The notes under the pieces: model-generated
Told to the model about the DNA's origin: nothing
Database searches by the model: none
Seen by the model: the letters and a program-made list of their open reading frames with translations, nothing else
In this document: piece by piece, positions 3,646 through 38,104 of the stretch
Position numbering within the stretch: the stretch's first letter is position 1
Layout: every line of letters starts with the position of its first letter
NCBI RefSeq assembly: GCF_013315695.1
Contig: NZ_CP054353.1
Length of the DNA stretch: 64,000 nt
Source of the DNA: Escherichia coli
GTDB taxonomy: Bacteria > Pseudomonadota > Gammaproteobacteria > Enterobacterales > Enterobacteriaceae
Reading direction: 5' to 3' (one strand)
Program-made: the position numbers and the translations under genes

Positions 3646-4656
3646 ATGACGACGATGCTGGAAGTGGCGAAGCGCGCCGGGGTTTCAAAAGCGACCGTTT
3701 CCCGCGTGCTTTCAGGTAATGGCTACGTCAGCCAGGAGACTAAAGATCGCGTGTTTCAGGCGGTAGAAGAGAGCGGTTACCGCCCAAACTTGCTGGCGCG
3801 CAATCTGTCGGCGAAGAGTACTCAGACGCTGGGGCTGGTAGTGACCAACACGCTTTACCACGGCATTTATTTTAGTGAACTACTGTTTCATGCCGCGCGA
3901 ATGGCGGAAGAGAAAGGGCGACAGTTGCTATTGGCAGATGGTAAACACAGCGCCGAAGAAGAGCGCCAGGCGATTCAGTATCTGCTGGATTTGCGCTGCG
4001 ACGCCATTATGATTTACCCGCGTTTTTTAAGCGTGGATGAGATTGATGACATCATTGACGCACACAGTCAGCCGATAATGGTGCTTAATCGCCGCCTGCG
4101 CAAAAACACCAGCCATAGCGTCTGGTGCGATCATAAACAGACCAGCTTTAACGCCGTGGCAGAGTTGATAAACGCCGGACATCAGGAGATTGCTTTCCTT
4201 ACCGGCTCGATGGATTCCCCCACCAGCATTGAACGTCTTGCCGGGTATAAAGACGCGCTGTCGCAGCATGGTATTGCGCTCAATGAAAAACTTATCGCTA
4301 ACGGTAAATGGACGCCCGCCAGCGGGGCCGAAGGGGTAGAAACGTTGCTCGAACGTGGGGCTAAATTTAGCGCGTTAGTTGCCAGTAACGACGATATGGC
4401 GATAGGTGCGATGAAAGCGTTGCACGAGCGCGGCGTAGCGGTGCCAGAGCAGGTGTCAGTTATCGGATTCGATGATATCGCAATTGCCCCCTATATCGTT
4501 CCGGCGCTCTCCAGCGTAAAAATTCCGGTGACTGAGATGATTCAGGAAATTATTGGACGGCTGATTTTTATGCTCGATGGTGGGGATTTCTCACCGCCGA
4601 AAACCTTCAGCGGAAAACTGATCCGCCGCGGCTCCCTCATTGCTCTTTCGCAATAA
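3646..4656 (+). CDS. ascG: LacI-family transcriptional repressor of the asc operon
   Basis: N-terminal HTH (MLEVAKRAGVSKATVSRVL) and periplasmic-binding-like fold; divergent from ascFB; start chosen at MTTML. Confidence 0.9.
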   Translation: MTTMLEVAKRAGVSKATVSRVLSGNGYVSQETKDRVFQAVEESGYRPNLLARNLSAKSTQTLGLVVTNTLYHGIYFSELLFHAARMAEEKGRQLLLADGKHSAEEERQAIQYLLDLRCDAIMIYPRFLSVDEIDDIIDAHSQPIMVLNRRLRKNTSHSVWCDHKQTSFNAVAELINAGHQEIAFLTGSMDSPTSIERLAGYKDALSQHGIALNEKLIANGKWTPASGAEGVETLLERGAKFSALVASNDDMAIGAMKALHERGVAVPEQVSVIGFDDIAIAPYIVPALSSVKIPVTEMIQEIIGRLIFMLDGGDFSPPKTFSGKLIRRGSLIALSQ

Positions 4657-4670
4657 ACATTGTCATCACA

Positions 4671-4696
4671 TGTCATCGTCACTAGTGTCGATGACA
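4671..4696. promoter_or_regulatory. Imperfect inverted repeat (tgtcatcgt...tcgatgaca) in the ascG-hydN gap; candidate activator site or ascG terminator stem
   Basis: Roughly 9-bp arms with one mismatch, read from the sequence; functional assignment is inference. Confidence 0.3.
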
Positions 4697-4751
4697 TCGT
4701 TTTTCCTGCATTACAGAATTTAATTTCTTTAAATAATAGTAAATTAAAAAC

Positions 4752-4766
4752 TGGCATGATTTGTGA
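4752..4766 (+). promoter_or_regulatory. Candidate sigma54 (-24/-12) promoter for hydN-hypF
   Basis: TGGCAT-N5-TTGTG about 40 bp upstream of the hydN ATG; GG present at -24 but the -12 GC is replaced by GT; the hydN-hypF operon is formate/FhlA regulated in E. coli. Confidence 0.35.
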
Positions 4767-4804
4767 ATGTATCGGCGCATTAACTGTCATTGCTGGAGAA
4801 TTTG

Positions 4805-5332
4805 ATGAACCGTTTCATCATTGCTGACGCGAGTAAATGTATTGGTTGCCGTACCTGTGAAGTGGCGTGCGTGGTTTCTCATCAGGAGAATCAGGACTGT
4901 GCATCGCTGACCCCGGAAACTTTTTTACCGCGAATCCATGTCATTAAAGGTGTGAACATTTCCACGGCAACAGTCTGCCGTCAGTGTGAAGATGCACCGT
5001 GCGCTAACGTCTGCCCGAATGGTGCTATCAGTCGTGATAAAGGGTTTGTTCATGTGATGCAGGAACGTTGTATTGGTTGCAAAACCTGCGTTGTGGCTTG
5101 CCCGTATGGCGCGATGGAAGTGGTGGTACGTCCGGTGATTCGCAACAGCGGCGCGGGGCTGAATGTACGGGCTGACAAAGCCGAAGCCAATAAATGCGAC
5201 CTCTGTAACCATCGTGAAGACGGCCCGGCGTGTATGGCGGCTTGCCCGACCCATGCGCTGATTTGTGTCGATCGTAATAAACTTGAACAACTGAGCGCAG
5301 AAAAACGTCGCCGTACGGCGCTGATGTTCTAA
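4805..5332 (+). CDS. hydN: Ferredoxin-like electron transport protein, multiple 4Fe-4S clusters
   Basis: Four CxxCxxCxxxCP-type cysteine clusters visible in the translation ([22 protein letters not shown]...). Confidence 0.92.
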
Positions 5333-10418: not shown

Positions 10419-10435
10419 ATTGCAGATTGCGTGCC
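10419..10435 (-). promoter_or_regulatory. sigma54 promoter (-24 TGGCAC / -12 CTGCA) for norVW
   Basis: Reverse complement reads TGGCACgcaatCTGCA, canonical -24/-12 spacing, upstream of the norV start. Confidence 0.8.
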
Positions 10436-10491
10436 AGTTTTTTATCTGATTGATTTTTATGTATAAATTAATTCATGCTCATTAATGAGTA

Positions 10492-37749: not shown

Positions 37750-38104
37750 GCAATAGAAAGATTCCTGTTATTTGTTTATGTCGATACATTACCCAATGGA
37801 AATAGTCACTTTTTTCTACCCTAACATACTGAGAATCTGAGGCAACCCCTGATGGCAAATGTGGCATGAATATTGATGTGAGCAAATCGCCGGAATTTCC
37901 CATGATATAAGGGCTGAGAGCAAATCGAGAAAAGTTGATATTTTTTATCAAAGATAGCGAAAAAACGCCTGAATATTGTGGTTTCAGGCGAATAATGCAA
38001 TAGAGTGTCAGTGTAGATCACCACAAAATATTTGCGTGATAAAAAGCTATTTGGCGTGAATTATTTCCCTGCAGCGGGTAGTGATATTTTTGAAAATAAC
38101 CCCC

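Follow-up and report, generated by a model that had tools for sequence, protein, structure and literature searches.

The ascG-hydN spacer of Escherichia coli: a weak-consensus sigma-54 promoter of hydN-hypF and a conserved palindrome that is its probable FhlA enhancer

The ascG-hydN spacer is a 148 bp segment (4657-4804) of the 64,000-nucleotide stretch of Escherichia coli DNA analysed here (NCBI RefSeq assembly GCF_013315695.1, contig NZ_CP054353.1; hereafter the 64-kb window). It separates a LacI-family repressor gene from hydN, which hypF follows, and contains, in order, a short GTC-containing element, a 28-bp palindrome, a run of T, an AT-rich stretch, a sigma-54 promoter element and a Shine-Dalgarno sequence (Table 1). 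Coordinates of ascG were transferred from the RefSeq annotation of a matching E. coli record (offset +2899). The products of the hydN-hypF operon are an electron-transfer protein that serves formate dehydrogenase H and the maturase HypF, which [NiFe] hydrogenases require.

Table 1. Features of the ascG-hydN region in window coordinates
Feature	Position	Strand	Basis
ascG, LacI-family repressor gene (stop TAA 4654-4656)	3646-4656	+	RefSeq annotation, matching E. coli records
GTC-containing element TTGTCATCAC, partly conserved, directly upstream of the palindrome	4660-4669	.	81-species footprint
28-bp palindrome ATGTCATCGTCACT/AGTGTCGATGACAT, probable FhlA upstream activating sequence	4670-4697	.	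Footprint, palindrome scan
T-run CGTTTTTCC, 3' of the palindrome	4698-4706	+	RNA fold, sequence
AT-rich spacer, enhancer to promoter	4707-4750	.	Footprint
Sigma-54 promoter element CTGGCATGATTTGTGAA (GG 4753-4754, GA 4765-4766)	4751-4767	+	Equals ChIP-seq motif OS26
Predicted transcription start (leader 27 nt)	4778	+	Rule: motif centre + 19 bp
Shine-Dalgarno GGAG of hydN	4795-4798	+	Read from sequence
hydN coding sequence, first gene of the operon hydN-hypF	4805-5332	+	RefSeq annotation transfer

Of 5426 complete E. coli genomes, 5425 match a 601-bp query around the spacer, with annotation as ascG and hydN. The palindrome and the sigma-54 motif are identical in the spacer of K-12 MG1655, where a few changes lie in the AT-rich part. 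For 727 of the 5425 genomes (~13%) the match to the query is only partial, and in two of these that were inspected homology starts at the extreme end of ascG (window ~4653-4662). In E. coli DETEC-S566, ascBFG is replaced by hycI and three small unnamed genes, after which comes hydN. Salmonella genomes that encode an identical HydN protein have different DNA upstream of it: in one, hycI adjoins hydN, and in another an extra 269-aa gene with no Pfam match lies between hycI and hydN. A search of 4300-5200 against Rfam returned no RNA family, even with E <= 1.

That hydN-hypF has a formate-inducible FhlA/sigma-54 promoter is already known and established, and the region itself is nothing new. In sigma-54 ChIP-seq of E. 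coli K-12, the motif of site OS26, CTGGCATGATTTGTGAA, has the same sequence as window 4751-4767, with the peak centred 9 bp away from the middle of the motif; the FAT value is 11, the downstream gene is hydN, and the flag 'C' denotes a promoter experimentally confirmed in EcoCyc (Bonocora et al. 2015, PMC4591121). Sigma-54 ChIP-seq was among the checks that the initial annotation had proposed, and on this point the agreement is letter for letter. The same study places predicted starts 19 bp past the motif centre and lists a distance of 27 to the gene for OS26 (PMC4591121 Table 1); in window coordinates the rule gives 4759 + 19 = 4778 and 4805 - 4778 = 27, in exact agreement, and the predicted transcription start used throughout is this rule-based position. 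Reconstituted RpoN holoenzyme also yields a gSELEX peak within the hydN/ascG spacer (Shimada et al. 2021, PMC8743547). Work on Salmonella detected binding to the orthologous site, TGGCACGATTCGTGTATA, by ChIP-chip and a sigma-54-dependent 13-fold rise of hydN-hypF; it lists the operon as FhlA-dependent, with Maier et al. 1996 as source (Samuels et al. 2013, PMC3844500). Formate-FhlA is further reported to enhance hydN-hypF, a member of the formate regulon (PMC11841067). The FhlA-dependent promoter of hydN-hypF that the initial annotation had put forward as a possibility is therefore supported by the published ChIP-seq, gSELEX, Salmonella ChIP-chip and expression data and FhlA/formate control.

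The promoter element requires a correction of register. TGGCAT does occur, at 4752-4757 (53 nt 5' of the hydN ATG at 4805), but the composite TGGCAT-N5-TTGTG that the initial annotation described is absent from the spacer, since TTGTG (4761-4765) begins only 3 nt past TGGCAT. Aligned to the canonical form (TGGCAC-N5-TTGCW, GG-N10-GC), the site reads TGGCAT-GATTT-GTGAA. With the start taken as 4778, GG 4753-4754 occupies -25/-24 and GA 4765-4766 occupies -13/-12, so that the dinucleotide at -12 is GA and not the GT previously assigned there, an error of 2 nt in registration. The GG and the G at 4765 stand 10 nt apart, as in sigma-54 promoters generally; the C expected to complete the -12 GC is replaced by A at 4766, and just before the -12 G the site has GT where the consensus has TT.

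Sigma-54 sites were scored with the Barrios-derived matrix of 186 compiled promoters as reproduced in PMC7658346 (maximum 21.3 bits), in which 173 of the 186 have C at that -12 position. The hydN site scores 10.6 of the possible 21.3 bits, which places it 19th among 127,970 window positions and 39th among the 42 bound E. coli intergenic-sense sites. The relaxed pattern TGGCAY-N6-TGW occurs 4 times in the window, against 2.7 expected, with no enrichment over shuffles. By sequence alone the hydN site is thus unremarkable, a weak match to consensus, and the reality of the promoter follows from published binding data and from conservation, not from the consensus match. A single A-to-C change at the E. 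coli -12 would lift the score to 14.8 bits.

Among the 42 bound intergenic E. coli sites, those without the -12 C are pspA, pspG and ygeW, with T, and hydN, with the sole A. The PspF-dependent promoters of pspA and pspG (-12 GT, TTGTA) are experimentally confirmed and, like that of hydN, are bound in vivo without the -12 C; they differ from it in having T at that position, TT before the G and another activator, whereas hydN has A and GT. Absence of the -12 C is a known, tolerated deviation and does not disqualify a sigma-54 promoter. The initial annotation had called the -12 deviation notable if this is the real promoter; that point rested on the misregistered GT, and bases other than C also occur at the bound pspA, pspG and ygeW sites.

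Two stronger matches elsewhere in the window are also published sites. The top one, TGGCACGCAATCTGCA at 10421-10436 on the minus strand (16.5 bits), is the norV promoter, site OS25. The second best, TGGCATGAATATTGAT at 37862-37877 on the plus strand (14.0 bits), also has GA at -12; it corresponds to the intergenic-antisense ChIP-seq site OA04 (GTGGCATGAATATTGAT), whose nearest downstream gene is ygaC, and a nearly identical bound site is assigned to proV in the Salmonella list. The norR-norV locus resembles hydN in that its sigma-54 promoter is served by upstream sites to which an enhancer-binding protein with a GAF domain binds, but the norV promoter is near-consensus, unlike that of hydN, and three GT-N7-AC NorR sites (PMC4987338 Table 1) stand there in place of the one palindrome at hydN.

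The palindrome is the best near-perfect one in the entire 64-kb window. Its arms (4670-4683 and 4684-4697, 14 nt each) abut without a spacer and are complementary at 13 of 14 positions, and its centre lies ~94.5 bp upstream of the predicted start. The inverted repeat reported by the initial annotation is therefore real, with a conserved 26-mer, TGTCATCGTCACTAGTGTCGATGACA, at 4671-4696, and its reported placement about 70 bp further upstream holds as well (69 bp from the first base of the right arm to the first G of the -24 GG). The E. coli locus was set beside the hydN loci of 80 further species, taking one genome per GTDB species (81 in total; genera include Escherichia, Salmonella, Citrobacter, Klebsiella, Raoultella, Kluyvera, Enterobacter, Lelliottia, Kosakonia, Cedecea, Trabulsiella and others). 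At most two mismatches to TGTCATCGTCA-N4-TGACGATGACA are found in 77 of the 81 species, and the 4-bp centre varies freely. Across the 81 species the arms carry 1.87 bits of information per column. The centre has 0.84, the 5' flank, which is mostly the end of ascG, 0.64, and the 3' flank 0.24. No other strongly conserved block lies at enhancer distance in this footprint. Directly upstream of the palindrome, the element at 4660-4669 has moderate information content (consensus ATGTCGTCAGC) and, judged from this pattern, may provide an extra activator contact; at the other end of the spacer, a CTGGAGA block at the hydN Shine-Dalgarno is conserved among orthologues.

Near-invariance extends to 20 of the 22 arm columns. 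Variation in the arms is limited to the middle base of an inner GWC triplet, which is A in 52 species and T in 29. This base and its partner are complementary in 55 species and form a non-complementary (T,T) pair in the other 26 of 81 (32%), and a Salmonella contig has (A,A) at the same pair; substitutions of this kind indicate that the palindrome does not evolve as an RNA stem would. The published FhlA matrix is A/T-degenerate at positions 3 and 12, which the variable base fits; it also fits the hyc-hyp activating sequences, in which E. coli and Salmonella differ largely by GTC/GAC swaps.

The palindrome is kept, and is perfect, in the ascBFG-less E. coli DETEC-S566, where the nearest upstream gene is divergent and 428 bp away, and it is kept next to other upstream neighbours (hycI or another gene) in Salmonella, Cedecea and E. 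whittamii. Its distance to the -24 GG is 58-61 bp in 31 species and 68-71 bp in 50 species, with nothing between. The means of these two spacing classes are 10 bp apart, and on the gene tree of hydN-hypF there are 8 independent changes of class. Spacing that steps by ~10 bp points to a face-of-helix constraint between an enhancer and the promoter. Within the intervening sequence, a conserved block TTAAATAAYAG...TAAAAA (consensus TTCCTTAAATAACAG...TAAAAA) lies immediately 5' of the -24 element, and TATCAAT-like blocks occur in the spacer of some genera. Inspection of the E. coli spacer by eye gave no convincing match to the IHF consensus WATCAANNNNTTR. By analogy with the hyc/hyp promoters, 4707-4750 is a candidate bend or IHF region.

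Several lines of comparison connect the palindrome with FhlA. Its location and stepped spacing agree with what is expected of an FhlA activating sequence, namely a site some 70-150 bp upstream of the sigma-54 promoter with constant helical phase. Its core, CGWCA-N4-TGWCG, is found at a single place in the window (0.23 expected) and likewise once each in 79 of 80 hydN loci, in every case at the site upstream of hydN. The fdhF upstream region has this core in common with hydN: it is found once in the 2-kb fdhF locus (CGTCAAAACTGACG), against ~0.007 expected, ~81 bp upstream of the fdhF GG. The hyc-hyp sequence shares 9-mers with the palindrome (TGTCGATGA in E. coli, GTCATCGTC in Salmonella), and when the hydN arms are used as a matrix, the best matches there fall inside the conserved GTC/GAC-rich block (p = 0.03 in E. 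coli, p = 0.01 in Salmonella); upstream of fdhF the same matrix gives no significant match (p = 0.43). Compared with the consensus CATTTCGTACGAAATG (Leonhartsberger 2000, as quoted in PMC4987338), the palindrome gives no convincing match, only TCGT/ACGA aligning by eye, with different spacing. The published FhlA matrix (13 sites, 14 positions, TGWC-N6-GWCA) is of low information, has many better chance matches in the window and decides the matter in neither direction; with it the palindrome core, CGTCACTAGTGTCG, reaches only 7.0 bits out of 17.2 and ranks 191st in the window, and the best fdhF match reaches 8.1 in the same register and hyc-hyp 16.0. Read from its sequence, position and conservation, the palindrome at 4670-4697 is nevertheless most likely the FhlA enhancer, a well-supported assignment, and the role of upstream enhancer that the initial annotation had offered for the repeat is in this sense upheld. 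The likely FhlA contact that the 81-species footprint delineates, TGTCATCGWCA-N4-TGWCGATGACA, is sharper than the published consensus or matrix. Within the hycA-hypA activating sequence, several of the differences between E. coli and Salmonella are GTC/GAC swaps (TTTCGTCGC/TTTCGACGC, GTGTCGAC/GTGACGAC, TTTCGACATC/TTTCGTCATC), which suggests that FhlA may read GWC triplets with indifference to the middle base.

The other promoters of the formate regulon (hycA, hypA, fdhF and hyfA) use the same activator and sigma factor as hydN and likewise have an upstream activating sequence ~80-110 bp from the start with GTC/GAC-rich repeats. In other respects hydN stands apart. Its enhancer is one compact 28-bp palindrome, against the longer irregular arrays at hyc-hyp and fdhF; its promoter, alone in the FhlA regulon set, is without GC at -12; and it is the weakest of the set both by matrix score (10.6 bits against 18.8 for hypA, 15.0 for hycA, 13.4 for fdhF and 12.1 for hyfA) and by ChIP FAT (11 against 201, 91, 41 and 16, respectively; PMC4591121).

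An enhancer-dependent sigma-54 promoter of hydN-hypF, with the palindrome as its FhlA enhancer, is the best explanation of these observations and one that we hold with considerable confidence. The initial annotation had also considered that the repeat might be the ascG terminator, and a rho-independent terminator of ascG or of another upstream gene, with no part in hydN activation, would account for several features of the E. coli sequence: as RNA the palindrome forms an 11-12 bp hairpin (-16.1 kcal/mol, z = -2.9; 1 of 200 shuffles as stable), it stands directly after the ascG stop and is followed by CGUUUUUCC (T5), and ascG is the upstream neighbour in most genera. A consensus terminator scan, however, called none in the spacer, and a T-run of at least 4 follows the palindrome in only 15 of the 81 species and is missing from 66. 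The arms are conserved as sequence, without covariation, and pairing is not maintained, as the (T,T) and (A,A) combinations illustrate. Persistence of the palindrome in an E. coli strain that lacks ascG, and in which no nearby co-directional gene ends, would be unexpected of a terminator, as would helically stepped spacing to the promoter, of which a terminator has no need. A terminator as the conserved role is thus unsupported, and this reading is very improbable; the analysis, which corrects the -12 register, assigns the palindrome to hydN and not to ascG. A dual use confined to Escherichia has somewhat more to recommend it. There the palindrome would serve as FhlA enhancer and, at the RNA level and together with the T-run, as a partial terminator that insulates the silent promoter from ascG read-through. 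The E. coli hairpin with T5 is compatible with this, as is the distribution of T-runs, which occur in the Escherichia and Salmonella lineages and few others; the stem is, however, low in G+C with an internal U-U mismatch, the terminator scan is silent here too, and the strain without ascG has kept the T-run as well, though simple inheritance could explain that. We regard such a dual use as possible but on the whole unlikely.

The mismatch of the palindrome with the published FhlA consensus and its weak score with the matrix leave room for a different regulator (AscG, HyfR or an unknown repressor) to use it as an operator while FhlA acts elsewhere. Against this, it is the sole strongly conserved block at enhancer distance, its core is common to the fdhF upstream region, and its GWC swaps are common to the hyc-hyp activating sequence. 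Persistence of the palindrome where ascG is absent led us to reject the AscG operator in particular; the palindrome also seems to lack the central-CG form typical of LacI-family operators. HyfR is a paralogue of FhlA, and sharing of the site between them might be viewed as a variant of the main explanation. An operator of some other regulator is, overall, quite improbable. Lastly, the sigma-54-like motif could be a chance or non-productive occurrence, with hydN transcribed from a sigma-70 promoter or by read-through, and its modest rank in the window and among bound sites, along with two weak sigma-70-like matches in the spacer, might be cited in favour. The ChIP-seq, gSELEX and Salmonella expression data and the fixed position of the element in 81 species argue otherwise. 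The initial annotation had listed a sigma-70-dependent hydN promoter as an outcome that would overturn its proposal; the two spacer matches agree at 9 of 12 positions and their number is within chance (2 found, 0.8 +/- 1.0 expected), and we rejected this candidate. A chance motif is scarcely credible.

Under the enhancer-dependent explanation, sigma-54 RNA polymerase forms a closed complex at TGGCAT-N5-GTGAA (4752-4767), a step that published ChIP-seq and gSELEX data show. Formate-activated FhlA would bind the 28-bp palindrome; dependence of expression on FhlA is published, and binding at this particular site is deduced from the comparisons above. The AT-rich spacer would let the bound activator reach the polymerase by looping on the correct helical face, as the ~10-bp spacing steps suggest, and ATP hydrolysis would open the promoter, with transcription from near 4778 (predicted), 27 nt before the hydN ATG. 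The GA at -12 would lower occupancy, to judge from a correlation in the published numbers. In Escherichia, the palindrome and T-run may also damp read-through from ascG, though not as a conserved role.

The comparison across species suggests that selection keeps the promoter weak and that its weakness is not accidental. The sigma-54 16-mer is present in the same register, 49-54 nt before the ATG (counted from GG), in all 81 species. The bases that never vary among them are TGG (positions 1-3), T (10), TG (13-14) and A (16). Two classes of sequence can be distinguished. Class I (52 species) combines a consensus -24 element, TGGCA[C/T], with a -12 element that has no C, TG[A/T]A; class II (29 species) combines a deviant -24 element (TGGAAC, TGGCTC, TGGCGC or TGGCGT) with the consensus -12 element, TGCA. 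Both elements are consensus, or both deviant, in none of the 81 species, and scores across species range from 9.0 to 13.7 bits. On a neighbour-joining tree built from 2486 aligned hydN-hypF columns, with switches counted by Fitch parsimony, the -24/-12 class changed about three times, with the two elements switching together on the branches concerned; in class I the position of the -12 C went from A to T or back five times, and C or G never arose there. This pattern of exclusivity and switching is suggestive, coming as it does from a gene tree with few events. The mutually exclusive deviations look new and, with the helically locked spacing, amount to minor new comparative observations. The hydN-hypF tree also has a deep split into two groups with no obvious agreement with genus, Kosakonia, Kluyvera and Cedecea, for example, falling apart from Enterobacter, Klebsiella and Escherichia. 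Such a split could arise from the rooting, from unequal rates or from an earlier transfer of the locus.

One interpretation of the two classes is that, across Enterobacteriaceae, two interchangeable defects keep the sigma-54 affinity of the hydN promoter deliberately below the optimum, a proposal to which we give even chances of being correct. If true, it would offer a natural example of stabilising, compensatory selection on the strength of a sigma-54 promoter, coupled to a helically locked enhancer spacing, and a plausible purpose would be strict dependence on cis-bound FhlA, or the setting of hydN-hypF output relative to that of hyc and hyp. Weak activator-dependent sigma-54 promoters such as that of Klebsiella nifH offer a parallel: their sub-consensus elements lead to low occupancy by the closed complex, and their output depends on a correctly phased, cis-bound activator. 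The weakness of nifH lies in the bases between -17 and -15, whereas that of hydN lies, according to lineage, in the -12 C or in positions 4-5 of the -24 hexamer.
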